DNA of 64,000 bases from a virus (Duplodnaviria; Heunggongvirae; Uroviricota; Caudoviricetes). The position numbers and the translations under genes are program-made. Below, piece by piece: positions 33,233-58,962 of the stretch (position 1 is its first letter; every line of letters starts with the position of its first letter). The stretch is from the IMG/VR virus record IMGVR_UViG_3300008262_000022; one strand, given 5' to 3'. Below the pieces are notes generated by a model. It worked only from the letters and a program-made list of their open reading frames with translations. It did not search any database and was not told the origin of the DNA.

Positions 33233-33405
33233 AGTCAGGTGGCGGAAAGATATTAGTAGTGGCGAGCGAACATATCGTGGTAGACGCATGTTTGTAGGTT
33301 ACGTGTCATGAGTTGAAAGCAACCTTAAGGTGGAGTTAATAACCACATACCTGAATTGACAGGAAATTAAATAATGACATACAGGTTCGAATCCTGTCCT
33401 GACTA
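33233..33405 (+). tRNA. tRNA-like element A (shared acceptor/T arm; D-loop and core carry insertions; non-canonical)
   Basis: 5' AGTCAGGTGGCGG.. and 3' ..ACAGGTTCGAATCCTGTCCTGACTA give a 7-bp acceptor and T arm; 173 nt, no canonical anticodon arm. Confidence 0.4.
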
Positions 33406-33644
33406 CGAGTCGACGATGTAAACTACGTATAGTATCTATACGTGCTATGAACAAACATAGAAACTCATAAAGAGTATAAGTGGCAAATGAGTTACAGTTC
33501 GGATTCGAACCTTAAAAAAGCTATAGCTTCAATGTTATGTAGATTCAGAATAGTTAATCTATTTAGGTACCTGAACCATACAAAGAGGTGTTAGTGTGTG
33601 ATGATAGTTTTTAGCTGCGGCGGAAATTTTTTGATTCACAATAC

Positions 33645-33744
33645 AGTCAGGTGGCGGAATGGTAGACGCTAGCTTAGATGGAAAGAAAGGTGAAAATGTA
33701 ATCTTAAAGCAACCATCATACAGGTTCGAATCCTGTCCTGACTA
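33645..33744 (+). tRNA. tRNA-like element B
   Basis: AGTCAGG-TG-GCG-GAATGGTAGA-CGC .. ACAGG-TTCGAAT-CCTGT-CCTGACT-A; D arm resembles type-II tRNA-Leu; internal 50 nt forms a GATGG/CCATC long hairpin rather than a 5-7-5 anticodon arm. Confidence 0.45.
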
Positions 33745-33759
33745 CAAATTTAAATAAGT

Positions 33760-34011
33760 ATGATTATAGCAATAACAATTTTATCAACATTATTAATAGT
33801 AGCATTAGGTTTTATAGCATATTGTTTCATACACATAAACAAAATACAAAAAGAACTAAATTCAATAAGTGAAGAACAATCACGTCAAAATGAGGATATT
33901 CGAAACTTAATGATAGCTCATATGACATTAGTTCAAGCACTAAAAGAAGCAGCTGAAGTAGAACAAATTAATAAATTATATAATTACAATAACGTAAAAG
34001 GAGAAGCATAA
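33760..34011 (+). CDS. membrane protein
   Basis: ORF track. Confidence 0.4.
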   Translation: MIIAITILSTLLIVALGFIAYCFIHINKIQKELNSISEEQSRQNEDIRNLMIAHMTLVQALKEAAEVEQINKLYNYNNVKGEA

Positions 34012-34012
34012 T

Positions 34013-34315
34013 ATGGCAAGAATAGATGTAGAAATTGATGTAGACGATATGTTATGGGATATGGATCGTCACGAAAAACAAGAGATGGCTGATAAGTTAT
34101 ATGAGCAAGGATATGTACCAGCTGATTTGCAAGACGAATTAGATGATGTAGTTGACCGTCAACCAAGTGGATATAACGAAATGGAGTTACATCAGCTATT
34201 AAACAAAGTTTGGGATAACAGAATGTTCCTTAACTCAAATGATTTAGAAGTTTTAAATATCTATCTGAAAAAGGATTATATTAGGCAAGATCCTTTTATT
34301 ACATTTATAAAATAA
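34013..34315 (+). CDS. acidic hypothetical protein
   Basis: ORF track. Confidence 0.45.
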   Translation: MARIDVEIDVDDMLWDMDRHEKQEMADKLYEQGYVPADLQDELDDVVDRQPSGYNEMELHQLLNKVWDNRMFLNSNDLEVLNIYLKKDYIRQDPFITFIK

Positions 34316-34320
34316 AAGTT

Positions 34321-35022
34321 ATGGCAGTACAAATTTATCAAAACGAAGAATTAAACGATGTAATGTTTCAAATTGAAGCATTAGATGAATGGAAACAACT
34401 AGCAGATGAGTTAGGAATGGAATCTCAACTTGAATTTGTTAGAAAAGCAGAATCACCTATTCCGTATCCACATATAAATAAGTCTATGGAGCTTATTTTT
34501 AGAACCTTATGTCCTACAACTACTGATTTTAAAACATATAGTAAAACAACAATACCTTTGGAGGTAATGAAGCAAATAGGATATTCTGTTAGGGAAAAAC
34601 ATTTTACCAAGATAGAAATATGGTATGATGATAAATCACCTGACCCGTTTGCGATAGGATATGTCCAAAAATGGACACCATATAATAAATCATATAATCG
34701 CCTTAAAGATTCTAATAATAAAGACATGTTATTTGATTCAAGCGAACAAGCTAAGAATTATGCTGAAACTGTAGGTTTTGATTGTTATGGTACTACTGAG
34801 TCGGTTTGTGATAGATATTTAATTGCTCGTTGGGCAGATGAAATAAGACCTATTCCTGAATTAAAAGAAATGGCTAAAGAACGTTTATTAGAAAAATATG
34901 GTGCTGAGTTAAGAATTGAAATTGAAGAAAAAACACAAGCTCTTAAAAAATTAACAGACAATGTTATATTATATCTAAATGCTGAAATATCAGAAGGTCA
35001 GTTAAAAGGTAGTAGATGGTAA
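34321..35022 (+). CDS. hypothetical protein
   Basis: ORF track. Confidence 0.45.
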   Translation: MAVQIYQNEELNDVMFQIEALDEWKQLADELGMESQLEFVRKAESPIPYPHINKSMELIFRTLCPTTTDFKTYSKTTIPLEVMKQIGYSVREKHFTKIEIWYDDKSPDPFAIGYVQKWTPYNKSYNRLKDSNNKDMLFDSSEQAKNYAETVGFDCYGTTESVCDRYLIARWADEIRPIPELKEMAKERLLEKYGAELRIEIEEKTQALKKLTDNVILYLNAEISEGQLKGSRW

Positions 35023-35222
35023 AAAAACGTAAAAAGTGGATTCCACCTAAAGAATTTGTAGTAATAAGTGACTATGGTTATTTTGCTGGGTTACATAAAG
35101 GAGGTAAATTTAGGTGGTCATTTAATTTAGACGATGCTAAACCACTTACAAATGTAGAGCAATATGAAACCATCAAAAGAGGTTGTTTTGGCACAGAAGT
35201 TATCTTAGATTTCATTAATTGA
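35016..35222 (+). CDS. hypothetical protein
   Basis: ORF track. Confidence 0.4.
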   Translation: MVKKRKKWIPPKEFVVISDYGYFAGLHKGGKFRWSFNLDDAKPLTNVEQYETIKRGCFGTEVILDFIN

Positions 35223-35235
35223 TAAAATAAAGGTT

Positions 35236-36321
35236 ATGCAGTTAAATACATTATATAAAAGAGCAGTAAACGGTAAAATTAATGAGTGGACCGTTGAAGT
35301 AAATGGTGCTTGTTTTAGAACAATATCAGGTTATACTGATGGTATTAAAACAACAAGCGAATGGACATGTTGTGAACCTAAAAATCAAGGTAAGAAAAAC
35401 GCTACAACAGCCGAAGAACAAGCATTAGCAGAGGCTACAGCTATGCATCGCAAACGTATTGAGTTAGGATCATTTGAAAACATTAATGATATAGACACAC
35501 CAGTTTATTTCAAACCAATGTTAGCTCATGACTATAATGATTACAAAGATAAAATCAAATTACCTGTAGCAATACAACCTAAATTAGATGGTGTACGTTG
35601 TATTGTTAGAGCAGACGGAATGTGGTCACGTAATGGTAAACCCATCATTTCAGCACCTCACATATTCGAAGCATTAACTCCATTATTTGAAACTAATCCT
35701 GATTTGATATTGGATGGTGAGTTATATTGTGATAAAACAACAGCTGGATTTAATACAATTATATCTTGTGTTCGTAAAACAAAACCAACTGAAGCTGATT
35801 TATCATTAAGTAAACAATTCATTCAATACCATATCTACGATGTTCCTAGTGTTGAGGATAATTTCATGGAACGAATAGCTAGTATTAATGGATTAGCATT
35901 ACCTGAATGCTGTAAAGTAGTACATACACATTGGGTTAGAGAACAATCACATGTCGATTATTTATATGGTTTATTTACAGAACAAGGCTATGAGGGACAA
36001 ATGATTAGATTAAATGCTCCATACGAAAATAAGCGCTCTAAATCGCTTTTAAAACGTAAAGAATTCGTTGATGCTGAGTTTACTATATTGGGTGTTGAGG
36101 AAGGTATTGGTAATTTATCAGGTAAAGTTGGTCGTCTTAATTTTGAAATAAACGGTAAACCATTTAATGCTGCTGTAAACGGAGATTGGGAATATATTGA
36201 ACGTCTATGGAAGAGTAGAGAAGGATTAGTAGGTAAAACAGCTACAGTCAAGTACTTCGAATTAACAGAGGATCAAATTCCCCGCTTTCCTAAAGTAATA
36301 GCAATTCGTGATTTTGAATAA
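35236..36321 (+). CDS. ATP-dependent DNA ligase
   Basis: motif I QPKLDGVRC (KxDG) and OB-domain-like C-terminus. Confidence 0.75.
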   Translation: MQLNTLYKRAVNGKINEWTVEVNGACFRTISGYTDGIKTTSEWTCCEPKNQGKKNATTAEEQALAEATAMHRKRIELGSFENINDIDTPVYFKPMLAHDYNDYKDKIKLPVAIQPKLDGVRCIVRADGMWSRNGKPIISAPHIFEALTPLFETNPDLILDGELYCDKTTAGFNTIISCVRKTKPTEADLSLSKQFIQYHIYDVPSVEDNFMERIASINGLALPECCKVVHTHWVREQSHVDYLYGLFTEQGYEGQMIRLNAPYENKRSKSLLKRKEFVDAEFTILGVEEGIGNLSGKVGRLNFEINGKPFNAAVNGDWEYIERLWKSREGLVGKTATVKYFELTEDQIPRFPKVIAIRDFE

Positions 36322-36322
36322 C

Positions 36323-36359
36323 AAGATTAGGATCGTCAAGATCCTTTTCTTATCTTTAC
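36323..36359 (+). repeat. 37-bp perfect direct repeat copy 1 (hairpin AGGATCGTCAAGATCCTTTTC plus TATCTTTAC -7-like box)
   Basis: identical to 46558-46594. Confidence 0.9.
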
Positions 36360-36365
36360 TATGTT

Positions 36366-37178
36366 ATGAAAATAAAGTTAGATAAACATAAAATATTCTT
36401 TACATCAGATACTCACTATGGACATACAAATATTTGTCGTGGTATAAGTAATTGGAGAGATGAAAGTGGTAATGTACCTGTAAATCAAACTCGTGATTTT
36501 GATACACTAGAACAGATGAATGATAAGATTGTTGAGTCGATCAACAGTGTTGTAGGTGAGGATGATATCTTATTTCACTTAGGTGATTGGTCATTTGGTG
36601 GGATGGATAATATAGTCAAATTTAGGCGTAAGATTAAATGTAAAAACATCCACTTAATATTGGGTAATCACGACCATCATATTGAACGTAATAAACAACT
36701 AACCAATTACTATAAAAACCCAGATACATTAGAAATAATGGAAGGTAATATAGATGATAATTTTTATGATGAATATAAATTTGGAGAATATTGGGATAAT
36801 AGGGTATATATTCAAGACCTATTCAGTTCGGTAAATCAATACCTAAGATTATCAGTATCGTTTTACCCAGGTACTACCTTATATCAAGGCGAACATGAGT
36901 TTGTACTAATGCATTACCCAATTGCAAGTTGGCATAATATGAATGATGGTGTTATACATTTGCATGGACACGTTCACTTACCTCCAGATAAAAAACTATC
37001 ACAAGGTAAAGCAATGGATGTGGGTGTAGATGGAAACAACTTAATGCCTTATACACTTGGCCAAATTGTAAACATAATGCATAAACAACCTATCGCTAAA
37101 TTATCTTTACCTCAAGACCACCACGAGGAAAAGTTAAGTGGTAATGGTGGTAATAAAAAGGGTGGTTCAAAATTTTAA
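36366..37178 (+). CDS. metallophosphoesterase (calcineurin-like)
   Basis: SDTHYGH, GDWSFGG, GNHDHH, GH.H motifs. Confidence 0.7.
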   Translation: MKIKLDKHKIFFTSDTHYGHTNICRGISNWRDESGNVPVNQTRDFDTLEQMNDKIVESINSVVGEDDILFHLGDWSFGGMDNIVKFRRKIKCKNIHLILGNHDHHIERNKQLTNYYKNPDTLEIMEGNIDDNFYDEYKFGEYWDNRVYIQDLFSSVNQYLRLSVSFYPGTTLYQGEHEFVLMHYPIASWHNMNDGVIHLHGHVHLPPDKKLSQGKAMDVGVDGNNLMPYTLGQIVNIMHKQPIAKLSLPQDHHEEKLSGNGGNKKGGSKF

Positions 37179-37180
37179 TT

Positions 37181-37552
37181 ATGAAACACGCTCGTATAAT
37201 AAATCTACCTAAAAACCCAAAACACATCTTCGAAGAAGCTATAATGTTAGGCTCAGAGAATTGGGTTGATGAAAAGGGTACTGAAGATCATCCTAGTGTT
37301 TGGCAGCGTGAACCTAGTAAGTTAAGCTTTGAGGAGGCGTTTAATTTAATTCAACCTTTTAAACCACATTGGGTATGTATTTTTAGAAATGAAAGTTATT
37401 TAACAGGTAGAGAGGAAGATGATTATTGGGATTTTGGTGGATGTAATATAGCATCAAACGATTATGGAGAAGTTTTTATTTGGATAAAAGTTAAACCTAA
37501 TATAGCTAGACAACTTTTTGAAAAATATAATTTAACAGTAGAAGAATATTAG
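37181..37552 (+). CDS. hypothetical protein
   Basis: ORF track. Confidence 0.45.
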   Translation: MKHARIINLPKNPKHIFEEAIMLGSENWVDEKGTEDHPSVWQREPSKLSFEEAFNLIQPFKPHWVCIFRNESYLTGREEDDYWDFGGCNIASNDYGEVFIWIKVKPNIARQLFEKYNLTVEEY

Positions 37553-37553
37553 T

Positions 37554-37805
37554 ATGGCTAAGTTCACAGACGAAAACGGCAGATTCAAGTCCAACTACGA
37601 GCCCGGACAGGTCGGATACCTGGTTGAGATCATGGAGTGGGTTTACCTGCACAATAACATGACCTATGACGAGAAGTTGGATTACCTGCTAAAGCTTGAA
37701 GAGGCACATGAGAACCATTTAAAAGAAGTATTTCCAGCTGGAAATTATCGTTGGGATAATAGGTGGAGTGATAAATTAATTAAATCAAAAGATAAAGATG
37801 AATAA
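37554..37805 (+). CDS. hypothetical protein (5' two-thirds much GC-richer than the genome)
   Basis: ORF track; compositional outlier. Confidence 0.45.
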   Translation: MAKFTDENGRFKSNYEPGQVGYLVEIMEWVYLHNNMTYDEKLDYLLKLEEAHENHLKEVFPAGNYRWDNRWSDKLIKSKDKDE

Positions 37806-38193
37806 AGAATTTATATCATACGAACAAGCATTAGCTTTAAAAGAATTAGGATTTGATGAACCTTGTTTGGCGCATTGGTATAATGAAACACCAACAAACC
37901 CAGAAGGTCAGTGTCTTGTTTATTATAAAAAGCCTTGGGATAATCAAAAGATTATAAACGGAGTTATCAGAGATTATTATTTTGCACCAACCTACTCCCA
38001 AGCATTTAGATGGTTTAGAGAGAAACATAATATGTTTGTTGAAATAACATATGAAAACAATTTACATGATTATATGATAATATCTGATATTTTTACTGAA
38101 GAGGTGGATTTTGGTGATGGTCCATTTGAAACATATGAAGAAATGGAGCTATGGTGTCTTAAAAAATTAATTGAAATAGTAAAAAATAAATAA
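37798..38193 (+). CDS. hypothetical protein (paralog of 39274)
   Basis: YEQALALKELGFDEPCLAHWY vs FEQAKWLKEKGFDEICLGHY. Confidence 0.45.
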   Translation: MNKEFISYEQALALKELGFDEPCLAHWYNETPTNPEGQCLVYYKKPWDNQKIINGVIRDYYFAPTYSQAFRWFREKHNMFVEITYENNLHDYMIISDIFTEEVDFGDGPFETYEEMELWCLKKLIEIVKNK

Positions 38194-38265
38194 TATGAAA
38201 AAATATAGATTTACAATATTAAAACATAATTTAGTTAAAGCTCACACTCAACTAGAATTAATAAA

Positions 38266-38559
38266 ATGAAAACAATAACATTTCAAATTTCAGACGAAGC
38301 ATTTGAACTATTACAAAAAATAGGTAATGGTGCTGCTGAATATCGTGATACCGAATATGACACATTAGAAGATTTTAAAAATTCTGATGAATATAAAACA
38401 GGGTTAAGAACTGAAGAATGGTTTTTAAATAGAAATTTTAATGGAACTTATCATTTGATTCATGAGTTATCAAGATATGGGTTAGTAGATTCAGATGGAA
38501 TGAGTTGGCATCTTACTTATATATTAACGGATTTAGGAAAACAAATATTAAAACAATGA
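38266..38559 (+). CDS. hypothetical protein
   Basis: ORF track. Confidence 0.45.
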   Translation: MKTITFQISDEAFELLQKIGNGAAEYRDTEYDTLEDFKNSDEYKTGLRTEEWFLNRNFNGTYHLIHELSRYGLVDSDGMSWHLTYILTDLGKQILKQ

Positions 38560-38834
38560 AAGAATTAATATTATATATATCTTTATTACTACTAATTGTA
38601 AGTTGTAATAATGATCCTGTTAGTTATTCATGTACTCAAGGTACAATTAGAATATTAAATAAGGAAAAACACCCATGTGCAAGAGGTGGAGGTGATTGTT
38701 CGTTTAAGTTTTATTTATACGATGGTCAAAGGGCTTATTGGTGTGGTACAGATAGAGACACTTGGAATAAATACAATATTCAAGATACTTTACCCACATT
38801 AATAATAACTAAAACAATAATTGAGGAAAAATAA
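38556..38834 (+). CDS. putative lipoprotein
   Basis: ATGA overlap; MKELILYISLLLLIVSC lipobox. Confidence 0.4.
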   Translation: MKELILYISLLLLIVSCNNDPVSYSCTQGTIRILNKEKHPCARGGGDCSFKFYLYDGQRAYWCGTDRDTWNKYNIQDTLPTLIITKTIIEEK

Positions 38835-38836
38835 AT

Positions 38837-39217
38837 ATGAAAGAACTCATAATTCTTCGTGGCCTCCCAGGCAGCGGAAAGTCAACATTCGCAAAACTAA
38901 TCTGTAACCAACATGTTGAAGCAGATATGTACTTCATGCAAGATGGAGAATATAAATTTGATGCTACTAAATTAAAACAAGCTCATGAATGGTGTAGAAA
39001 CAAAACTGAGGCTTGGATGCAAAAACGATATAATGTAGTTGTATCAAACACCTTCACTATGGAGTGGGAAATGGATGCTTACTATGAGTTAGCCAAACAA
39101 TACGGTTATCGAGTACACTCCATTATAGTTGAGAATAGACATGGTGGAGTGAATGAACATGGTGTACCTAAAGATAAGTTAGAACAAATGAAAAATAGAT
39201 TTGAAATCAAACTTTAA
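38837..39217 (+). CDS. P-loop kinase (AAA_33/polynucleotide-kinase-like)
   Basis: ILRGLPGSGKSTFAKL Walker A in a 126-aa protein. Confidence 0.55.
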   Translation: MKELIILRGLPGSGKSTFAKLICNQHVEADMYFMQDGEYKFDATKLKQAHEWCRNKTEAWMQKRYNVVVSNTFTMEWEMDAYYELAKQYGYRVHSIIVENRHGGVNEHGVPKDKLEQMKNRFEIKL

Positions 39218-39220
39218 TGT

Positions 39221-39273
39221 TTGGCTTGTCAAAGTAAAGATATTATATTTACAATGTAATAATAATAAAGGTT
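39221..39273 (+). promoter_or_regulatory. candidate promoter
   Basis: TTGGCTTGTCAAAGTAAAGATATTATATTTACA..AAAGGTTATG; a 20-nt core recurs at 47158. Confidence 0.45.
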
Positions 39274-39735
39274 ATGCAAGAAATTAAACCAACATACGTA
39301 ACATTTGAGCAGGCTAAATGGCTTAAAGAGAAAGGATTTGATGAAATTTGTTTAGGACATTATTCGTCAGATGGAGAATTACAAACATTGCAAGATTATT
39401 TAAGTCTTGGAGCAGATGTAGAAGAAATGATTAACAAGCCATTTAATGGTATTTCTTATATGAAAACTATGTGTAAAGCACCTGAACAATGGCAAGTAAT
39501 TGAATGGTTAAGGGTTAATCATGGTATTTGGGTTTATCCTCTTCCAATAGATGATGAAATGAAATTATGGCAATGTAGAATTATTAAAGGTCAACCTTTT
39601 AGTAATTTAAAAAATACATTAAAAATAATTAGTCATGGTGAAATTTCTTATAGAGGATTATATTCACCACAAGAAGCTTACTCAGCAGCATTTGATTACG
39701 TTTTAAACAATAATTTAATATGCAAAAATTATTAA
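39274..39735 (+). CDS. hypothetical protein (paralog of 37798)
   Basis: shared N-terminal motif. Confidence 0.45.
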   Translation: MQEIKPTYVTFEQAKWLKEKGFDEICLGHYSSDGELQTLQDYLSLGADVEEMINKPFNGISYMKTMCKAPEQWQVIEWLRVNHGIWVYPLPIDDEMKLWQCRIIKGQPFSNLKNTLKIISHGEISYRGLYSPQEAYSAAFDYVLNNNLICKNY

Positions 39736-39856
39736 ATAGTATTATATTCATATGTGTTATTACATTAATAGCAAACGTAGTACCAGAATCATTTATATTA
39801 AGTATTGGATTCTGGGGAGGTTGGGCATATTGTAAATTACAAGAGAAAGGATATGT

Positions 39857-40438
39857 ATGGTAAATAATTTTAGACAAATAGTACAACTTTTAAAATTTGA
39901 TAATGAAGATGATTTCTACCACTTACAAATTCTAAAACGTAAAAAAGAAAATCCTGAGTTAGGTTCTAACTCCTATGTTATTAGGACTTATTGTATTCGT
40001 TCTAAAGAACATTTAGTAGAGAAAATGGATGAGATTATAAGTTTATGTATGCATCACAATGCAAGAGCATATATTAATCTTAACCGTAGGTCATTTGAAC
40101 GTGCCGCTTTCCACACTCTAAAAAAGATATCAGACATCATTATGAATCGAGACTATAAATCAGTTCGTAATGCGTTTGAATCAGTTTGTGGTGAGTATGG
40201 TTCTGGTAAAGACAAATATTGGATCATTGATATTGACCCAGAACATTTTGAATTGGCACCTACACTTAAAATACATTTAACTGACTTAGACCCAGTTGGA
40301 GCTAAAGTACATGCTGAGGTACCTACTAAAAATGGTTATCACATTATTACAACTCCATTTAACAAAGCTGAGTTTAAAAAGTTATATCCTGAAATAGATA
40401 TACATACTAATAACCCAACTATATTATTTTGTAATTAA
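39857..40438 (+). CDS. hypothetical protein
   Basis: ORF track. Confidence 0.45.
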   Translation: MVNNFRQIVQLLKFDNEDDFYHLQILKRKKENPELGSNSYVIRTYCIRSKEHLVEKMDEIISLCMHHNARAYINLNRRSFERAAFHTLKKISDIIMNRDYKSVRNAFESVCGEYGSGKDKYWIIDIDPEHFELAPTLKIHLTDLDPVGAKVHAEVPTKNGYHIITTPFNKAEFKKLYPEIDIHTNNPTILFCN

Positions 40439-40441
40439 GAT

Positions 40442-40729
40442 ATGTTTAGTATATTCAAATTCAATTTATTTAAACCCAACGATTGGAAATTAGTCTGGAA
40501 TGACTATGCAGTATGGAATATATGTGACTCACAAGGTGATTCAATATATGAACGTAAATGTTCCTATGAAATCTACTACTCTCAGTTTAGAGGGGAATTT
40601 AAATTAAAAGCTTCTGGTCACAGAGCAAAAGAACATAACTATTATTTCACAGTAGTTCTTCCAAAATTTATTGAATGCAATAAAATTATTTTAGCTCATC
40701 AAAATAAAGAGGCTACATTTATCGAGTAA
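40442..40729 (+). CDS. hypothetical protein
   Basis: ORF track. Confidence 0.4.
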   Translation: MFSIFKFNLFKPNDWKLVWNDYAVWNICDSQGDSIYERKCSYEIYYSQFRGEFKLKASGHRAKEHNYYFTVVLPKFIECNKIILAHQNKEATFIE

Positions 40730-40740
40730 AAATAAAAAAT

Positions 40741-40830
40741 ATGAAAACACTTAATTTAACACATCCCAATAAGTCGGATGTACAATTCAAAGTATCTCAG
40801 TTTCCGGATGGACAACATTATATTATTTGA
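40741..40830 (+). pseudogene. 29-codon ORF fragment, possibly the N-terminal remnant of a ribose-phosphate pyrophosphokinase-like gene
   Basis: MKTLNLTHPNKSDVQFKVSQFPDGQHYII weakly resembles the Prs N-terminus (..RFSDGE..); followed by about 400 bp without convincing coding. Confidence 0.2.
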
Positions 40831-51220: not shown

Positions 51221-51273
51221 TGGTTGGCAAAACTATCGTTCGTACATTTATATCACAATTAAAAATAAAGGTT
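51221..51273 (+). promoter_or_regulatory. candidate promoter
   Basis: TTGGTTGGCAAAACTATCGTTCGTACATTTATATCACAATTAAAAATAAAGGTTATG. Confidence 0.45.
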
Positions 51274-51642: not shown

Positions 51643-51651
51643 AAATCATAT

Positions 51652-51773
51652 AGTCAGGTGGTGGAATTGGTAGACACACCCTTAGTAATGGGGATTCAAC
51701 TCAATGTACAAATGTATGAGAGAAACTATTACCGTAGATATATTGAACACAGGTTCGAATCCTGTCCTGACTA
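51652..51773 (+). tRNA. tRNA-like element C
   Basis: AGTCAGG-TG-GTG-GAATTGGTAGA-CAC .. ACAGG-TTCGAAT-CCTGT-CCTGACT-A; internal CCC/GGG stem with TAGTAAT loop (GUA-like) but position 33 is not U; 122 nt. Confidence 0.4.
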
Positions 51774-51799
51774 CAAAATGATTTATTAATTAAAATAAA

Positions 51800-52189
51800 A
51801 TGAACGCTTTAAAAATTGAAACAAGAAAACAAATTGATCTAGGAGATTGGGATAATCTAGTATCTGAGCATTATGGTAAAATTTATAGTTTTCAACAACA
51901 AGATGATTGTAAAGAAAGAGGTATTGAAACTATAACAGTACCATGTGAACCAGAAGATTATGAAAACGATTCAATTCCATTTGTAATTAACGGAGATGAA
52001 ATGGGTGTTAGTTTTAAAACTTGGTTAGAAACATCACCTGAAGACACTAAAAAAGAATTTACTGATTCTTGGGGGAATAATTTATTTTGGGATAGAAATT
52101 TTTATCCTCACGTGAGTATGATTATAAATGATCTACACGCAAAAGGAATTCTACCTGAAGGTGAATATGATATTAAAATAAATTGGTAA
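51800..52189 (+). CDS. hypothetical protein
   Basis: ORF track; between two tRNA-like elements. Confidence 0.45.
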   Translation: MNALKIETRKQIDLGDWDNLVSEHYGKIYSFQQQDDCKERGIETITVPCEPEDYENDSIPFVINGDEMGVSFKTWLETSPEDTKKEFTDSWGNNLFWDRNFYPHVSMIINDLHAKGILPEGEYDIKINW

Positions 52190-52198
52190 TCAAATTAC

Positions 52199-52296
52199 AG
52201 TCAGGTGGCGTAGATGGTGAAACGCAGAGCGGATGTGGATATCGCTTACTTTGAGACCACATAAAAAGGATACAGGTTCGAATCCTGTCCTGACTA
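52199..52296 (+). tRNA. tRNA-like element E
   Basis: same acceptor and T arm; 98 nt; internal ATGTGG/CCACAT pairing instead of a canonical anticodon arm. Confidence 0.4.
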
Positions 52297-52409
52297 CAAA
52301 ATTGAAAAGAATATGAAAAACGATAACTTAAAAACAACAATCGGGTTAGTATTGGCATTGGCATTAGTATATGTTATAGGTCAGATATTACTTAGAATGA
52401 ATTTAATTT

Positions 52410-52600
52410 AGTCAGGTGGCGAAATTGGTAGACGCTACGAGTGGGTGTTACACTAATACATCCGTAACTAAGGTATGACTCTATGTGGGTGGCTGAACGT
52501 ACTGCAAACGGTGTGATAATTCTGGGCTTGAATCCAGTGTATCCTACTACAAGCCTTTGATTAATGACCACATTTACAGGTTCGAGTCCTGTCCTGACTA
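52410..52600 (+). tRNA. tRNA-like element D (composite, contains an internal degenerate T-arm/3' end)
   Basis: same 5' and 3' ends; internal CTGGGCTTGAATCCAG..TCCTACTACAAG looks like a decayed second 3' half; 191 nt. Confidence 0.35.
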
Positions 52601-52610
52601 CAAAACAAAT

Positions 52611-52663
52611 TTGATTGGCAAAATAAAATTATTACCTTTACACCACAATTAATAATTAAGGTT
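52611..52663 (+). promoter_or_regulatory. candidate promoter
   Basis: TTGATTGGCAAAATAAAATTATTACCTTTACACCACAATTAATAATTAAGGTTATG. Confidence 0.45.
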
Positions 52664-52864
52664 ATGAATAAATCAGAACAAAACAAGGCAAAGGTACAAA
52701 ACATCATCAAGATGTTAAACGAAATAAACGTTGATGGTGAAACAATGGAATATATCCTCAACCAAGTGGGTATGGAACAACAAATGTTGAAACAATTAAT
52801 AATGAGTTCACCAATTGAATGGTCGATTAGATTATTAAACGAGAAAGTAAATTTACCTAAATAA
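52664..52864 (+). CDS. hypothetical protein
   Basis: ORF track. Confidence 0.4.
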   Translation: MNKSEQNKAKVQNIIKMLNEINVDGETMEYILNQVGMEQQMLKQLIMSSPIEWSIRLLNEKVNLPK

Positions 52865-53580
52865 TGCGAGGCGGAGTAAAGAGATAGATATAAGAATAAA
52901 TAGACGAATAATATCCAGTAATAAACAAGATATGAAAATCAAAGAAACATATATTGTGTGGAGTGAGAGATTTAATCAATTGGTTAAACTCCATTATACC
53001 ACATACCGAGATGGTAGCGGGGCTAGATACTTCATCGAAGTGAACCTAAATATAGTTGCAATAACCATAGATGAAGCCCACGAATTATTAGACCAATATA
53101 ATTAATAATCAATAATATGGAAATTCATAGCGATTATAAAGTAATTCGAACAACATTATTATCCGAGCTGGAGAAGGATGTTAATACATATCTCAATAAG
53201 GGATGGCAACTACAAGGAGGAATATCAACCGTAATGGGTCATGGCGACACCCAACATTATTTACAAGCCGTTTGTATTAAACGAGAAGTATAATTACTCA
53301 CAAAAATAAATGCAAAATATCGCGTAAAGATGCGCAAAAAACGCAAGTAAATGATATGATGTGAAAATTTGTTAAGTGTGAACTAAGTGATGGATGTGTG
53401 GAAACCGAAACGAGAGTTTCGGGCGCCCGAAAAGTGAGTTTAGGGTGATAGGTGGAATGAGTTTAGGGAATGGTTGGGGCGAGGCGTGGCGTGGGTCAGA
53501 AAATTGTGCACACCACACACCTATTTCACAACGACTCATATATCCAGATATACTTTCTCGCGTGTCTTGGCACAATTTTT

Positions 53581-53610
53581 GCTTAAATTTACACCACAAT
53601 TAAAAAAACA
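53581..53610 (+). promoter_or_regulatory. candidate promoter
   Basis: AAATTTACACCACAATTAAAAAAACAATG. Confidence 0.4.
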
Positions 53611-53889
53611 ATGAAACCAACTAAAGAACAACGTAAGCACGTGTATAATTGGATGTTAAAACAATTAAATGATGGTTGTGTCAGTCCTTTTTTGTGTAAT
53701 CTTTTAGATGATTATAACGAAACTTTTATCAAAAATTTTGTACTAATTGATTTTCCTGAATTGGTTAGACAGCGACAAGGAGATCGTTGTGCTTGGTTTT
53801 TTGAAATAGACGGTATTGTGGATTACCACGAAATACGCATCCGCGTATTAAATAACGCATTGATTTATTTAAACACTGAAATAGTATAA
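53611..53889 (+). CDS. hypothetical protein (tandem paralog 1)
   Basis: QRKHVYNWMLKQ..FLCNLLDDYNE..DFPELVRQRQ. Confidence 0.45.
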   Translation: MKPTKEQRKHVYNWMLKQLNDGCVSPFLCNLLDDYNETFIKNFVLIDFPELVRQRQGDRCAWFFEIDGIVDYHEIRIRVLNNALIYLNTEIV

Positions 53890-53891
53890 TT

Positions 53892-54242
53892 ATGAATAAT
53901 ACATTAGGTTGGAAAACAGATCACTCAGCATGTATCCTTGAGGAACAACGCCTACACGTGTACAGATGGATGTTGAAGGAAATATTAAATGGTAATACTA
54001 CCGGCGAGTTTTTGTGTCATTTGTTGGACAAATACAACGAACAACACGACACCAATTACAAATTGGATCAATTCCCCGAATTGGTTATGCAGCGACAATC
54101 AACTTATAGTTGGTGGGGTGGAATAGGGGATAAAAACAAATACAAATACCTCAACAAAAAACATGGGATGGATAGTTTTAAAGACCGAATGAAATTCCGT
54201 TCATATGTTCTGTCGGATGCAATAGAATTTTTAATGGATTAG
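53892..54242 (+). CDS. hypothetical protein (tandem paralog 2)
   Basis: QRLHVYRWMLKE..FLCHLLDKYNE..QFPELVMQRQ. Confidence 0.45.
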   Translation: MNNTLGWKTDHSACILEEQRLHVYRWMLKEILNGNTTGEFLCHLLDKYNEQHDTNYKLDQFPELVMQRQSTYSWWGGIGDKNKYKYLNKKHGMDSFKDRMKFRSYVLSDAIEFLMD

Positions 54243-54254
54243 TTAGGAAGGCAA

Positions 54255-54295
54255 GGCTTTTTACGTACCTTTACACCATAATTAATAACAAACAT
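54255..54295 (+). promoter_or_regulatory. candidate promoter
   Basis: TTTTACGTACCTTTACACCATAATTAATAACAAACATATG. Confidence 0.4.
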
Positions 54296-54559
54296 ATGTC
54301 TAAAGTACAAATCAGATCAATTTTTGAACAGATTTCAGAAATTGTTTTCAACACAGCCGATTTAGCTATTGCTAAACAAAGCACTATTGAATTTGTTTCA
54401 TCAAAAACTATCAACGACAAAGACAAACAAGCTATTTTATCCAGTATCAATGGTTGTACTACAATCACTAAATTTCAGATGTATGTAGCTAACGCGTTAC
54501 TTAAGTATGAAGGATTAGGGGCGGATAGGATGGCGAAGGAATATAAGCCTCGCGTATAA
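54296..54559 (+). CDS. hypothetical protein
   Basis: ORF track. Confidence 0.4.
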   Translation: MSKVQIRSIFEQISEIVFNTADLAIAKQSTIEFVSSKTINDKDKQAILSSINGCTTITKFQMYVANALLKYEGLGADRMAKEYKPRV

Positions 54560-54594
54560 CGCAAAGCAAATACGTAAAAAACACTATTGAATAA

Positions 54595-54620
54595 GACAAC
54601 CACTCCGGTTGTCTTTTTTT
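54595..54620 (+). terminator. rho-independent terminator
   Basis: GACAACC-ACTCC-GGTTGTC then TTTTTTT. Confidence 0.65.
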
Positions 54621-54788
54621 GTCTGCACATATGTATTGTCGTTCAAGCAGCAAATTCGATTGGTAGCCCGTGAGTTACCCAACTTAGTAGCACAGCCCTT
54701 TGTAGCACCGCAAACAGTTATAGCTAGAGAGCAAATAAATATACAAACACTTCTTTAAAAGACCTAGCATTTTTGTGCAGGCTATCTT

Positions 54789-54810
54789 TGTGCTCGGCAC
54801 AGCTTTTTTC
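54789..54810 (+). terminator. terminator-like hairpin
   Basis: TGTGC-TCG-GCACA..GCTTTTTT. Confidence 0.35.
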
Positions 54811-54869
54811 GTATCTTGTAGCCAATGCTTTTTTATCACAAATTTTTTTGCAACAGCACTTGTTGAGAG

Positions 54870-54921
54870 GCAAAGTCCAAAGCATATATTTACATCATAA
54901 TAAAATTAAATAATAAAGGTT
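54870..54921 (+). promoter_or_regulatory. candidate promoter
   Basis: CAAAGCATATATTTACATCATAATAAAATTAAATAATAAAGGTTATG. Confidence 0.45.
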
Positions 54922-55176
54922 ATGTCAACAGAAAACACAGCAGTTGCTACTGCAACTAAAAAAGTAGGTCGTCCGGTAGTAGAAGGTTCAAAGCGTCAAG
55001 CACAAATGGCTGCTCGAGCAGAACGAATCGCAAACGGAGTAGAAATTAAACGTGGTCGCCCAGCATCAACCACTTCAAAACGTGCAATTAAAATGCAAGA
55101 ACGTGCAGAACGAATCGCTCGTGGTGAGAAGGTAGGGCCGGGTCGCCCAAAAGTAAAAGTTGAGGCTGCCGCTTAA
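54922..55176 (+). CDS. basic AT-hook-like DNA-binding protein (paralog A)
   Basis: VGRPV, KRGRPA, GPGRPK (RGRP cores) with a repeated ..R.A.M.ARAERIA.G.. unit. Confidence 0.45.
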   Translation: MSTENTAVATATKKVGRPVVEGSKRQAQMAARAERIANGVEIKRGRPASTTSKRAIKMQERAERIARGEKVGPGRPKVKVEAAA

Positions 55177-55192
55177 GGTAGCTTTTTACTAG

Positions 55193-55231
55193 ATCGCCTG
55201 CGGACTTTTTGTTCGGCAGGCGATTTTTTTG
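55193..55231 (+). terminator. rho-independent terminator
   Basis: ATCGCCTGC..14 nt..GCAGGCGAT then TTTTTTT. Confidence 0.6.
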
Positions 55232-55254
55232 TATATTTATCTAAAATTTTTACC

Positions 55255-55491
55255 ATGAAAGATAAAATAATAAAACACCTAGCAAAGGCTAAAGAGGAAA
55301 TCGATAATATCCTAGATGAAGCCATGTTAAATGCAACCAACATCGAAAATATCGATCTAGAGTATATGGGTCAGCAAGTTGATGATCTGATAGTTCAGCT
55401 AGAGGAAATAGACGATATTGAATTTACCCCAGAAGAGGAAGATTTATCGTGGATGGATGACGATGATGAAGATTACGATGATAACTACTAA
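55255..55491 (+). CDS. acidic hypothetical protein
   Basis: ORF track; C-terminal DDDDEDYDDNY. Confidence 0.4.
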   Translation: MKDKIIKHLAKAKEEIDNILDEAMLNATNIENIDLEYMGQQVDDLIVQLEEIDDIEFTPEEEDLSWMDDDDEDYDDNY

Positions 55492-55496
55492 TACAG

Positions 55497-55523
55497 AGCG
55501 CTCGCATAATGAGCGCTATTTTT
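55497..55523 (+). terminator. rho-independent terminator
   Basis: AGCGCTC-GCATAAT-GAGCGCT then ATTTTT. Confidence 0.55.
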
Positions 55524-55533
55524 GTCTAACGAT

Positions 55534-55725
55534 ATGACTAGAACCAAGTGTAATAAATGCTCAAAGAATTTTTTGTCGTATGATCCTGGGGATCTTTGTC
55601 CGGCGTGTGGGGAGGGATGGCTGCTTTCCTCTAGATGGTCCGGAGGGTCTAGCACCCCTAAAAAGGCCCCTTTAGCCGATAGTAAATTTTTTAAACAGCG
55701 AAGCACAAAATTTAGTGTTAGATAG
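55534..55725 (+). CDS. zinc-ribbon protein
   Basis: CNKCSK..CPACGEG; ATG at 55534 (track start 55522 is TTG). Confidence 0.4.
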   Translation: MTRTKCNKCSKNFLSYDPGDLCPACGEGWLLSSRWSGGSSTPKKAPLADSKFFKQRSTKFSVR

Positions 55726-55775
55726 GCACAATTCTTTTTGTATATTTACACCACAATTAAAAAAAAATAAAGGTT
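55725..55775 (+). promoter_or_regulatory. candidate promoter
   Basis: TTCTTTTTGTATATTTACACCACAATTAAAAAAAAATAAAGGTTATG. Confidence 0.45.
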
Positions 55776-56201
55776 ATGAAAAACGGATTAGAATTATTCA
55801 ATGCAATGAAAGCAGAAGCTAAAGCATTAGGAATCGACATCAAAGGTATGAAAAAAGCAGAAATCGAAGCAGCAATTGTTGCGGCTCAAGAGAAATTTGC
55901 TGAACAAAACAGTGATGATGTTGAATCACAAACAGAAGTGGTTATTAGTATCACAAATGAAGGTGTTACTAAATCAACAAGACCTGGTCGCCCAGTAAAT
56001 CCTGACAGTGTTAGACAAAAAGTACTTGCTGAGAAACAGAAATTACGTGAAGCAGGTTTGTTGAGAAGGGGACGTCCGGCAGTAGAAGGATCAGCTCGAC
56101 AAGCTCGAATGCAAGCTAGGGCAGAAAAATTAGCTGCAGGTATTCCAATTAAACCGGGCAGACCGAAAATGGTTAAACCTGAAGAAGTTAAGGCAGAATA
56201 A
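55776..56201 (+). CDS. AT-hook-like DNA-binding protein (paralog B)
   Basis: RPGRPV, RRGRPAVEGSARQARMQARAEKLAAG, KPGRPK; shares its repeat unit with 54922. Confidence 0.45.
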   Translation: MKNGLELFNAMKAEAKALGIDIKGMKKAEIEAAIVAAQEKFAEQNSDDVESQTEVVISITNEGVTKSTRPGRPVNPDSVRQKVLAEKQKLREAGLLRRGRPAVEGSARQARMQARAEKLAAGIPIKPGRPKMVKPEEVKAE

Positions 56202-56230
56202 GTTGTTATTAATTGTTGTTTGTTATACAA

Positions 56231-56258
56231 GAGCGCTTCGTAATGAAGCGCTTTTTGT
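56231..56258 (+). terminator. rho-independent terminator
   Basis: AGCGCTTC-GTAAT-GAAGCGCT then TTTTG. Confidence 0.6.
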
Positions 56259-56260
56259 TT

Positions 56261-56288
56261 GTCAAGATTTTTGTATTATATTTACATC
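56261..56288 (+). promoter_or_regulatory. candidate promoter
   Basis: TTGTCAAGATTTTTGTATTATATTTACATCATG. Confidence 0.45.
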
Positions 56289-56465
56289 ATGAAAACGATT
56301 ATAATAAAGCTATTCATAATAGTGTGTTGTGGTGAATACAGTAATGGAAATTACCACTACGAAGCTAAATCAACAAGTGACACTTCAACATATAGTGTTT
56401 ACAGCACAACTAAATACAATGTTGGAGATACGATTCAATATAAATTTGTTGGTTTGTCAAAGTAA
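56289..56465 (+). CDS. small secreted/lipoprotein-like protein
   Basis: MKTIIIKLFIIVCCGE; ATG at 56289 (track start 56259 lies within the promoter). Confidence 0.35.
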   Translation: MKTIIIKLFIIVCCGEYSNGNYHYEAKSTSDTSTYSVYSTTKYNVGDTIQYKFVGLSK

Positions 56466-56502
56466 TTGTGTTATATTTACATCACAATTAATAAATAAAA
56501 CA
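56466..56502 (+). promoter_or_regulatory. candidate promoter
   Basis: TGTGTTATATTTACATCACAATTAATAAATAAAACAATG. Confidence 0.45.
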
Positions 56503-56697
56503 ATGAAAGCTTCAGAATTAATTAGTCAATTACAAGAATTGATTGACAAAAACGGTGACAAAGAATTAGTATTGAGAGTAACTGATCATACTGATTGGGA
56601 TTATCATTTCGAATTTCCTGACTTCGAATTAGACGAAGTGTATGATGAAGATGATGATTTTGAAGGTGAATATTTTGTTTGTCATCAGAGTATTTAA
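56503..56697 (+). CDS. acidic small protein
   Basis: MKASELISQLQELIDKNGDKE; the track ORF 56329.. overlaps the upstream gene and promoter, so the start was trimmed. Confidence 0.4.
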   Translation: MKASELISQLQELIDKNGDKELVLRVTDHTDWDYHFEFPDFELDEVYDEDDDFEGEYFVCHQSI

Positions 56698-56707
56698 AAT
56701 AATATTT

Positions 56708-56735
56708 GGGTAGTCAAGACTACCCATTTATTTTT
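56708..56735 (+). terminator. rho-independent terminator
   Basis: GGGTAGTC/GACTACCC palindrome then ATTTATTTTT. Confidence 0.55.
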
Positions 56736-56758
56736 ACATCACAATTAATAACAAATGA
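56736..56758 (+). promoter_or_regulatory. candidate promoter
   Basis: TTTTTACATCACAATTAATAACAAATGATATG. Confidence 0.4.
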
Positions 56759-56939
56759 TATGAAAAATAATTATCTAATTTTTCCAAATCCAAATGACGT
56801 GTATTCTAATTTAACTACTACATGTACTAGAGAAGAGTTAAATAATGTTCTAATTGAACTAGAATTGATAGAACCTAATGATCATTATTCAAATTGTGCT
56901 TGGGTAATATTTGAAAACGGAATAATGGTTCAAGGTTAA
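56759..56939 (+). CDS. hypothetical protein
   Basis: MKNNYLIFPNPNDV; start trimmed relative to track 56706. Confidence 0.4.
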
Positions 56940-56946
56940 TTAAATT

Positions 56947-56968
56947 AAGGCTCGTCAGAGCCTTTTTT
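56947..56968 (+). terminator. rho-independent terminator
   Basis: AAGGCTC-GTCA-GAGCCTT then TTTT. Confidence 0.6.
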
Positions 56969-57000
56969 ATATATTCACATCACAATTAATAATTAATCAT
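56968..57000 (+). promoter_or_regulatory. candidate promoter
   Basis: TATATATTCACATCACAATTAATAATTAATCATATG. Confidence 0.4.
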
Positions 57001-57192
57001 ATGTCAGATTTTAACGTAACAAAATTAGAAAATGGTGATTTCGAAGTAACAAAATCACATCAAAAACAAGCAAACTTATTATATGTAGTTTGGGTATTGT
57101 TTGTTGTATCAGTAGTGTTAATGTCGATGTCTTGTTCAACAAATAAATCGACCTTCAAGACAGCTCGTTATTGTAAACATCAAATGTATTAA
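57001..57192 (+). CDS. small membrane protein
   Basis: ORF track; TM segment LLYVVWVLFVVSVVLM. Confidence 0.4.
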   Translation: MSDFNVTKLENGDFEVTKSHQKQANLLYVVWVLFVVSVVLMSMSCSTNKSTFKTARYCKHQMY

Positions 57193-57314
57193 CGTTATGA
57201 GTAACTATAATAAATTTAATCAGCAAGTAGAAGATTTTATAGGTTATTTGTTAATAGCACTATTTATTTTTGCTATAATAATATCTATATAAACGTGGTT
57301 AGTCACAATTCATA

Positions 57315-57345
57315 TATTATATTTACATCGTAATAAATAAATGAT
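57315..57345 (+). promoter_or_regulatory. candidate promoter
   Basis: TATATTATATTTACATCGTAATAAATAAATGATATG. Confidence 0.4.
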
Positions 57346-57495
57346 ATGAACGATATTAAAAATGTAGATGATTTAATTAAAGTCTTATTAGAAAATCTAG
57401 AGTTAGCTTACAAATTAAAGTTTGAAGGTGAAAATGAAACACAAGACTTAGGTAGTTTAATAGATAGTTTAAATGATCAGTTTAGGTAAGTAGGG

Positions 57496-57522
57496 GTGGT
57501 GGGTCAAAACCCACCACTTATC
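57496..57522 (+). terminator. terminator-like hairpin
   Basis: GTGGTGGG-TCAAAA-CCCACCAC then TTATCTTT. Confidence 0.4.
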
Positions 57523-57691
57523 TTTATCTCATAATAAACAAAGCAATGAAAATAATAATTCAAACTATAATAATGATAGGATATGTAGGAATATATCCAC
57601 GAGAACTACAAATACTAGCACCATCTGTATTTATGATAATAGGGGTATTAATTTATATCTTAACTGAAGTAGTATATAATAAATTAAAGTA

Positions 57692-58087
57692 ATGAAAATA
57701 ATACTAACAAACGAAGAATCGGAAAAAATATTCCACAATGCATTATGTAATGGATTACCTTACATCCACGGGTATGGTCTAACTTTAGAGGCAGACAAGC
57801 AAGATTATAAAGCCGCTAGTCAAAAGCTCAAATCAGAAAAACCGAATGAATTGATCTGCTATGAGGATATTTTATTAAAAATGCTTCAAATGGGCTATAA
57901 ATTAACTCTAGTGGATGAAGAAGGAGATGGTGCTTACACTAGCGAAATAGGAATAAATGAGGTACACGAGCGAGTTCAACTAGCACCAGCAAGGAATTTA
58001 ATTAATACATTAGATGAGACGGACGATGCTGAGGATGCAGATATAATAATTCAAACCGTATTCTTTAATGAAGTAATATTTGGATAA
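57692..58087 (+). CDS. hypothetical protein
   Basis: ORF track. Confidence 0.45.
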   Translation: MKIILTNEESEKIFHNALCNGLPYIHGYGLTLEADKQDYKAASQKLKSEKPNELICYEDILLKMLQMGYKLTLVDEEGDGAYTSEIGINEVHERVQLAPARNLINTLDETDDAEDADIIIQTVFFNEVIFG

Positions 58088-58500
58088 GTAAAATCTGCGA
58101 TTTAAACGTCTTGGCGCATGCAAATATATAAGCATGCGCTCTTTATTTTCGAGCGCTAAAGATCGCGCGTATGCGAGTTTAAACAATAGAATATATGCTA
58201 GCCGGCGGTCTGAAAAAAGGGACTAGCTTTTGCAGGCGCTAGCGGCCCGCCGGCGGAATGACAGCGGAATGGCCCCATGCTAGCCGCGGTCCATGCGCGG
58301 GATGCGTTTGGTACAAAAGCCAATGTTACGTATTCACAGTTCGCACACACCTCTCGCCCATCGACAATATATACGTATATCCCCCAACTCTTGTGGTCGC
58401 ATTTTCGGTTTAACCCCTTTTGGGATAAATTGCAAGATGTCAAAGAACTCTTTTAAACAGATCTTTTATGTCGACAAAAGTATATACTTATATCTGTGTG

Positions 58501-58591
58501 AGGCTGGTATGGGTCTCGAACCCATTTAAGAGATATTTCTAATCTATCCCTACGTACCGTCCCACTGTGAAGCCGTTTACAGTGACCAGCC
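58501..58591 (-). tRNA. tRNA-like element H (distinct acceptor GGCTGGT/ACCAGCC; 91 nt, type-II length)
   Basis: minus strand: GGCTGGT-CA-CTG-TAAACGGCTTCA-CAG-T..38 nt..ATGGG-TTCGAGA-CCCAT-ACCAGCC-T; a 5-7-5 anticodon arm could not be placed. Confidence 0.35.
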
Positions 58592-58596
58592 ATTCG

Positions 58597-58705
58597 TAGT
58601 CAGGACAGGATTCGAACCTGCAAACACTCCATCGGGTATTTTAAGACTAAGCCAGAGATAAACTCCTATGCTGGTCTGATTTGGCTACCATTCCGCCACC
58701 TGACT
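58597..58705 (-). tRNA. tRNA-like element F
   Basis: minus strand: AGTCAGGTGGCGGAATGGTAGCC .. GCAGGTTCGAATCCTGTCCTGACTA. Confidence 0.4.
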
Positions 58706-58710
58706 ATTTC

Positions 58711-58845
58711 TTATTTTACTTCTCTTATACGAGAAATATCAGTTTTTAATTTTTTAGCTGCTTTTGTTTTATTCCAAGCTTTAATTGTTTTAGTTGGGTT
58801 ATCTATAGAACGATATTCAATTTTACTTTTTATTAATCTTTTCAT
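58711..58845 (-). CDS. small basic protein (44 aa) between minus-strand tRNA-like elements
   Basis: MKRLIKSKIEYRSIDNPTKTIKAWNKTKAAKKLKTDISRIREVK; the only minus-strand ORF with a plausible context. Confidence 0.3.
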   Translation of the reverse strand: MKRLIKSKIEYRSIDNPTKTIKAWNKTKAAKKLKTDISRIREVK

Positions 58846-58860
58846 AACTTTAAATCTTAG

Positions 58861-58962
58861 TAGTCAGGACAGGACTCGAACCTGTATGAAGAGATTAATT
58901 TTTGTGGTATAAGTTTCTCTTCTAACCAACAATTAGCGTCTAACCAATTCCGCCACCTGACT
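58861..58962 (-). tRNA. tRNA-like element G
   Basis: minus strand: AGTCAGGTGGCGGAATTGGTTAGACGC .. ACAGGTTCGAGTCCTGTCCTGACTA. Confidence 0.4.

Follow-up and report, generated by a model that had tools for sequence, protein, structure and literature searches.

The closest precedent for the elements described here is RNAC of phage T4. RNAC and RNAD (species 1 and 2) are small stable RNAs encoded in the phage tRNA cluster, beside genuine tRNAs and a gene for a homing endonuclease. At its 3′ end RNAC has a canonical T arm (CCGGG-UUCGAAU-CCCGG) followed by an acceptor-like strand, the intervening stretch of about 100 nt is not tRNA sequence, and the function of both RNAs remains unknown (PMC3014915, PMC9697503). 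A 64 kb stretch of viral DNA (Caudoviricetes; IMG/VR record IMGVR_UViG_3300008262_000022), hereafter called the window, carries seven tRNA-like elements that are part of a large phage-borne RNA family for which no earlier description was found. Our interpretation, which is tentative and placed at a little under an even chance, is that these elements are genes of phage-specific small RNAs derived from tRNA-Leu, without an anticodon arm, in which an invariant handle bears an exchangeable cargo.

Placed side by side, T4 RNAC and the window elements have nothing but the generic T loop in common, and their sequences are otherwise dissimilar. A tRNA-Leu D arm is missing from RNAC, whose acceptor helix is poor, and the T4 RNAs are single genes, whereas the family in the window joins one invariant, multi-copy handle to many cores. 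The likeness to class II bacterial tRNA-Leu is closer, as the scaffold has its D arm (22 nt), A73, A15-U48, G18G19, U8-A14 and T loop, and a helix 2–3 nt upstream of the T stem, like the long variable arm, is often present; it differs from tRNA-Leu in having no 5-7-5 anticodon arm, and in its fixed acceptor (AGUCAGG) and T stem (ACAGG). Another relevant system is tmRNA, in which a large insert of non-tRNA sequence takes the place of the anticodon arm beside a tRNA-like acceptor/T domain. It is charged without an anticodon, and is also found in phages (one is present in L012; the labels L001–L170 and L228 denote the loci fetched for comparison). In contrast to tmRNA, the elements have a full D stem, lack G3:U70, and carry cores that are far shorter and not conserved family-wide.

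The same architecture has reportedly been engineered by Ponchon and Dardel as the 'tRNA scaffold', in which a cargo RNA is said to replace the anticodon arm and cell enzymes to process and stabilise it; the elements differ from this in being natural, phage-borne and multi-copy, and in that the cargo also occupies the position of the variable arm. A tRNA-like module also serves as the handle of a non-coding RNA, next to a separate functional part, in YrlA (a bacterial Y RNA) and in the tRNA-miRNA transcripts of gammaherpesvirus MHV68. The latter is a eukaryotic system of eight genes, in which the cargo follows the tRNA-like part, while YrlA has a permuted topology, ending in a Ro-binding stem and having its acceptor closed by a loop. 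The window elements end at the acceptor stem, and gave no Rfam match to YrlA or to the MHV68 RNAs. No published description of the family was found in full-text literature searches or in Rfam 15, and the few tRNA-like candidates of a 2023 catalogue of viral structured RNAs were not compared. tRNA-like phage RNAs as such are already known, and what is new here is a widespread family with an unusual mode of evolution.

Seven copies of a tRNA-Leu-like scaffold

The anatomy of the elements, their pattern of conservation, their covariation and the signals at their flanks are established by the comparisons given below. When the window was scanned with the 24-nt 3′ half of the scaffold, ACAGGTTCGARTCCTGTCCTGACT, at up to three mismatches, seven copies were found, each with zero or one mismatch, and none were found in shuffled sequences. 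The 5′ half, AGTCAGG-TG followed by the D arm, lies 98–191 nt upstream of each of the seven, and when both strands of the entire window were searched with a scaffold covariance model, its filters switched off, these seven copies were the only ones returned. They are listed here (in whole-window positions) together with a neighbouring tRNA-like sequence, element H.

33233–33405, plus strand: element A, 173 nt with a 93-nt core; exact 3′ half and scaffold-model match
33645–33744, plus strand: element B, 100 nt with a 'B-type' core; 3′ half and scaffold-model match
51652–51773, plus strand: element C, 122 nt; 3′ half and scaffold-model match
52199–52296, plus strand: element E, 98 nt; 3′ half and scaffold-model match
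52410–52600, plus strand: element D, 191 nt; 3′ half and two partial scaffold-model matches
58501–58591, minus strand: element H, 91 nt; distinct tRNA-like sequence, 5 nt downstream of G
58597–58705, minus strand: element G, 109 nt; 3′ half with one mismatch and scaffold-model match
58861–58962, minus strand: element F, 102 nt; 3′ half and scaffold-model match

A first-pass annotation, made from the letters of the window, had given these eight positions exactly and had placed all eight in one family. That grouping holds for the seven scaffold copies, which share a 7-bp acceptor stem (AGUCAGG/CCUGACU), A73, a canonical T arm and the tRNA-Leu D arm. None encodes CCA, and all seven read A73-C74-(A/G/T)-A at their 3′ ends. 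The near-identical halves, the perfect acceptor and the canonical T arm were thus correctly recognised at first pass, as was the type II tRNA-Leu character of the D arm, in which 22 nt are identical to E. coli tRNA-Leu in 5426 of 5426 complete E. coli genomes. Element H is a neighbour of the scaffold family and not a member of it. It has its own acceptor (GGCUGGU/ACCAGCC), T arm (AUGGG-UUCGAGA-CCCAU) and discriminator (U), and folds well (z-score −3.4); it has no relatives in any fetched locus, was not called by ARAGORN or Rfam, and matches the scaffold model at E = 5.6.

Between their halves the seven elements show no similarity to one another, in agreement with the original description of completely different cores. 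Element B is closed by the helix GAUGG...CCAUC, which encloses an inner hairpin (AAGA/UCUU, loop GUGAAAA); the loop between GATGG and CCATC is 31 nt long, and not 33 nt as first given. The core of element C has a CCCU/GGGG hairpin, with a 7-nt loop lacking U33 and a possible pairing of loop to downstream sequence (GUAAUGG/CUAUUAC), and its D stem is a covarying variant (GUG/CAC). Similarly, the core of element E has a GAGCG/CGCUU stem with an 11-nt loop, in which AUGUGG is able to pair with a downstream CCACAU. The helix of the element F core (GAAGAGA/UCUCUUC) ends 2 nt ahead of the T stem, and element G has a variant D arm (GGC...GCC) and a G-U as the first pair of its T stem. Two elements carry extra parts: in element A, a 31-nt hairpin (33248–33278), unmentioned at first pass, is inserted in the D loop between A15 and G18G19, an arrangement resembled by D-loop insertions in L024, L072 and L108, while element D contains a second, degraded T-arm/acceptor 3′ half at about 52522–52549, as had been noticed earlier.

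No tRNA and no tmRNA was called by ARAGORN in the whole 64 kb. The Rfam tRNA model (RF00005) matched four of the eight elements at 36–44 bits, three of them above its gathering threshold, with alignments that cover the acceptor, D and T arms and pass over 32–58 nt where the anticodon arm would be: B at 38.6 bits (40 nt skipped), C at 39 bits (58 nt), E at 43.6 bits (32 nt), and F at 35.9 bits in an evalue-mode run only. The acceptor, the discriminator, a T loop of the form UUCRANY and a D arm with G18G19 are those of a canonical tRNA, and a 5-bp/7-nt anticodon arm with U33 was not seen by the tRNA finders, consistent with the failure of the first-pass annotation to fold one. Across the family, ARAGORN called 33 of 159 copies and left 126 uncalled. 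Its isotypes were erratic; about nine of the 33 calls were Leu, and the others included 2-base, 4-base and A34 'anticodons'.

The acceptor has U3-A70 and not the G3:U70 of tmRNA, and neither ARAGORN nor Rfam made a tmRNA call. No group I intron family was matched at E up to 10 over 33000–59500, and any group I intron would be longer than most of the inserts. Families other than tRNA were absent from the Rfam results for the window region and for 145 kb of related loci. A weak match to RAGATH-33 (57740–57853, plus strand; 23.8 bits against a gathering threshold of 120, E = 0.57), lying upstream of the minus-strand cluster, is probably due to chance.

Conservation of the scaffold and exchange of the cores

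The exact 24-nt 3′ half is present in at least 119 IMG/VR contigs, with up to six copies in some stretches. Among 185,579 bacterial and archaeal species (one genome each), the same 24-mer occurs in 20 contigs, all from metagenome-assembled genomes and mostly of Bacteroidota from fresh water, and in no isolate genome. Searches of INPHARED found neither the exact scaffold in a cultured phage, the closest matches being ordinary tRNAs, nor any phage near-identical to the window. In total, 201 distinct copies were collected from more than 140 loci, which range in G+C from 25 to 53%.

When 1.23 Mb of loci were searched with a 25-nt version of the 3′ half, 131 copies had no mismatch, 55 had one and 13 had two, and beyond this only a background of other tRNAs was seen. 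The acceptor and T stems of the tRNA-Leu(UAA) genes proper in the same loci vary freely. In a non-redundant alignment of 48 scaffolds, 99.4% of cells were paired. The D-stem pair C11:G24 was replaced by U:A in 10 rows, and pairing was also kept in a T-stem variant (ACAAG/CUUGU) and in an acceptor variant of L167 (GUCAAGG/CCUUGAC). The bases for tertiary contacts and tRNA-Leu identity are well maintained (n = 198): U8 93%, A14 83%, A15 85%, G18 83%, U48 85% and A73 96%. Compensatory changes in three helices, together with the retention of unpaired tertiary bases, indicate that selection acts on the RNA fold. One ordinary phage tRNA shares part of this sequence. A 72-nt tRNA-Gln(UUG) of Enterococcus phage EFDG1 (L228, 356–427), a type found in Enterococcus Schiekvirus phages, matches the scaffold in its T stem (ACAGG/CCUGU) and in acceptor pairs 2–7 (GUCAGG/CCUGAC) and has a different D arm, reflecting either shared ancestry or chance.

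Sorted by core, the 201 copies make up 174 unrelated types, 154 of them represented by a single copy, and the first-pass description of a tRNA scaffold with variable cargo, and of a new family of structured non-coding RNA, is borne out. Where a type recurs, the cores are 75–100% identical and the 400-nt flanks are at background, with similarity beginning at A1 and ending at C74. For example, the core of element B recurs in five IMG/VR contigs (L005 and L167–L170) with unrelated flanks, both AT-rich and GC-rich. Compensatory changes were found within this type (AAGA/UCUU to AAGU/ACUU, and one A-U pair to G-C) and in another (GGUAU/AUACC to GAUGU/ACAUC). The E-type and F-type cores have no exact match in IMG/VR.

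The opposite situation is found in close relatives of the window. The open reading frames (ORFs) on both sides of the slot that holds elements A and B are shared with L162 and L164 at 88% and 70–74% nt identity, and the scaffolds are identical. The slot contains two, two and three elements in the window, L162 and L164, respectively, and their cores are unrelated and differ in length. Similarity blocks between these relatives start exactly at the scaffold 3′ half (33719/33720 in the window). Between elements C and E, the ORF at 51800–52189 has relatives in 78 loci, with at most 64% aa identity and without elements. Core types that are kept across contexts, and slot contents that differ among close relatives, imply that the elements are exchangeable units in plastic regions, drawn from a large pool.

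A helix ending 2–3 nt before the T stem, in the manner of a long variable arm, is present in 37% of cores compared with 20% of shuffled sequences. The signal for an H-type pseudoknot as a general architecture of the cores is weak: crossing helices are no more enriched than nested ones (mean z 0.29 and 0.28), with values of 1.5–2.6 for elements C, E and F of the window. A second T-arm-like hairpin, such as GGUGGUUCAAUUCCAC, was noticed inside the cores of copies in L024, L034, L042, L063, L089 and L095. In L042 it stands at the position of the anticodon arm with the loop UUCAAUU, and that copy might, from its sequence, still be a tRNA-Leu(CAA).

Outside the pattern used for searching, the scaffold flanks have U at −1 (77%), A at −2 (70%) and C74 (98%), followed by A/U and then A. 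The 231 tRNAs called by ARAGORN in L001–L165 are closely similar, with U at −1 (71%), A at −2 (60%), and a 3′ end that is usually N73-C, then A/U and A, and not CCA. Bacterial RNase P prefers U at −1. The window elements lie 5–26 nt from co-oriented small ORFs. One of these, a 32-aa hydrophobic mini-ORF at 52313–52411 (plus strand; MKNDNLKTTIGLVLALALVYVIGQILLRMNLI), has a TAG stop codon that overlaps A1-G2 of element D. A basic ORF of 44 aa (58711–58845, minus strand) is situated between elements F and G. None of the ORFs flanking the window elements had a Pfam match, and a search for promoter-like and terminator-like signals around the clusters, the Bacteroidota motif TAnnTTTG included, brought up nothing conspicuous.

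Possible functions of handle and cargo

If the elements are genes of small RNAs built on a tRNA-Leu handle, then each would be co-transcribed with the surrounding small ORFs and excised in the manner of a tRNA, by RNase P cleavage ahead of A1, 3′ trimming near A73/C74, and completion of the CCA. The product would take up an L-shaped fold, in which the acceptor/T minihelix, the D arm and the elbow form the invariant handle, which host tRNA enzymes would accept and which would stabilise the RNA. Charging with leucine is also conceivable. The leucyl-tRNA synthetase (LeuRS) of E. coli requires A73, the A15-U48 Levitt pair and G18G19, while the anticodon and variable arms are dispensable (PMC9976931). 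The scaffold contains this entire set, and the parts that the enzyme can do without are the parts that are absent; since the handle has every element needed by E. coli LeuRS, the RNA may be leucylated. The exchangeable module would sit where the anticodon and variable arms of a tRNA would be, and the core would be a specific effector, probably with an accessory role in host takeover or counter-defence, for which the handle would serve as a natural 'tRNA scaffold' for expression.

A more far-reaching form of this idea, possible but doubtful, is that a universal handle feeds any inserted RNA into host tRNA maturation, and perhaps charging, and that the more than 170 cores are fast-exchanging RNA effectors traded by recombination at the handle. 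Such effectors may be decoys, aptamers or guides directed against host defences or rival phages. This repertoire would parallel, at the level of RNA, the gene islands of anti-defence systems, and the engineered tRNA scaffold would have a natural equivalent. RNAs of the T4 RNAC type have gone without a function for decades, and hundreds of natural variants on one handle bring the problem within reach of experiment. Should the cores be effectors, they would represent a large unexplored class of small RNAs in freshwater/Bacteroidota phages, and the handle a ready-made natural scaffold for RNA expression. There is also a consequence for annotation. The elements are mis-annotated, with erratic isotypes from ARAGORN, and odd tRNA-like genes of other kinds are labelled 'tRNA-Undet' or 'tRNA-OTHER' in deposited phage records; counts of phage tRNA genes are distorted by such calls. 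Two near-identical 'tRNA-Undet' genes of Tenacibaculum phage pT24 (L166, 5790–5868 and 6157–6235), for instance, have normal acceptor, D and T arms, an 8-bp anticodon stem and a UAUAUUA loop, and are odd phage tRNAs of a different kind.

Several observations weigh against small RNAs with effector cores. One is that the acceptor and T stems are invariant to the letter, which fits no host enzyme that we can name, because RNase P, the CCA-adding enzyme and LeuRS need no fixed sequence there; the copies were, in addition, gathered via the exact 3′ half, and that half therefore looks more conserved than it is. The LeuRS rules are those of E. coli and not of Bacteroidota. The cores are only mildly more stable than shuffled sequences (mean z −0.62, p ~1e-7, n = 74), and the 'long idiosyncratic hairpins' of the first-pass annotation were an overstatement to that extent. 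The cores have no motif common to all beyond D-arm/T-loop remnants, they contain no Rfam families, and complementarity between the window cores and the rest of the window is at chance level. No protein partner is apparent either, as an all-against-all clustering of 2,525 ORFs gave no family in more than 14 of 119 loci. Finally, no cultured phage in INPHARED carries the scaffold.

Alternatively, the elements could be processing punctuation, a role that the first-pass annotation had listed beside that of a decoy. The scaffolds would then act only as RNase P and 3′-end processing sites, by which long early transcripts are divided into separate mRNAs or their stability is set, and the cores would be tolerated filler. 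We regard this as unlikely, although short distances to co-oriented small ORFs, the stop codon overlapping A1, and clusters without outstanding promoter-like or terminator-like signals speak for it, and flank signals equal to those of real tRNAs, and cores that are weakly structured and swapped among relatives, also agree with it. Filler, however, would not hold 75–100% identity across unrelated contexts, with sharp boundaries and compensatory changes, and inserts of 30–230 nt would be costly for a compact phage genome. RNase P would be satisfied with a minihelix, but the complete D arm and the Levitt pair have been retained.

Retention of the whole E. coli LeuRS identity set, with the anticodon arm gone, could also mean that the scaffold acts as the effector in its own right: a tRNA-Leu mimic, impossible to cleave or to decode, which would titrate a protein that recognises the body of tRNA-Leu, such as LeuRS, an anticodon nuclease or a tRNA-tail nuclease. 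Several copies per genome would raise the dose of such a decoy, and an RNA ligase is encoded in the window. Defences that target tRNA are documented, one being Cas12a3, which is reported to cleave tRNA tails (PMC12851939). One good sequence would do for a decoy, and not 174 conserved core types, and conservation within types would be left unexplained. Moreover, we know of no tRNA-Leu-specific defence system in the hosts of these phages, and a decoy appears distinctly unlikely.

As linkers for recombination at the DNA level, the two conserved halves of 25 nt would provide portable homology for swapping cores and small gene cassettes, comparable to the promoter stem-loop repeats of T4-type phages. 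A shared patch of homology would need exactly the letter-level invariance that is seen; similarity blocks of relatives start at the 3′ half, the number of elements and the intervening ORFs vary among relatives, and homing endonuclease genes are nearby. Compensatory changes in three helices, and tertiary bases that are unpaired and still retained, point instead to selection on an RNA fold, and linkers as the sole explanation are improbable. A linker role is nevertheless compatible with small RNAs on a tRNA-Leu handle, and may be how the cores come to be exchanged.

Very improbable are working tRNAs (Leu or several isotypes) with unusual or intron-bearing anticodon arms, or decaying tRNA-Leu pseudogenes, given that the RF00005 matches above threshold, the minority of Leu calls and the plausible UUCAAUU loop of L042 are set against the silence of ARAGORN in the window, the 126 uncalled copies and aberrant 'anticodons' in the family and the lack of any group I intron in Rfam searches, and that an invariant scaffold with type-specific cores would not persist across phages in pseudogenes.

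Genome context

The window comes from a large T4-like phage with a G+C content of about 30%. Among its products are a clamp loader, ThyA, a DNA ligase, an RNA ligase and GroEL, the last of which has its nearest match (57.6%) in Flavobacterium phage immuto. The first-pass annotation had suggested a functional link between the elements and an RNA ligase/kinase toolkit, and nothing was found in favour of this, given the ORF clustering described above; neither a kinase nor a CCA-adding enzyme was recognised among those window ORFs that were scanned.

A GIY-YIG/NUMOD homing endonuclease gene (29569–30081, plus strand) is located 3 kb upstream of element A, and an ORF at 19440–20093 (plus strand) has Cys motifs and is HNH-like by eye only. 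Relatives of these two ORFs are present in nine and six scaffold-carrying loci, respectively. A sugar-nucleotide cluster (6845–17791, plus strand) contains two NAD-dependent epimerase/dehydratases, a C-methyltransferase and at least four glycosyltransferases, which suggests that the phage modifies a glycan or its own DNA.

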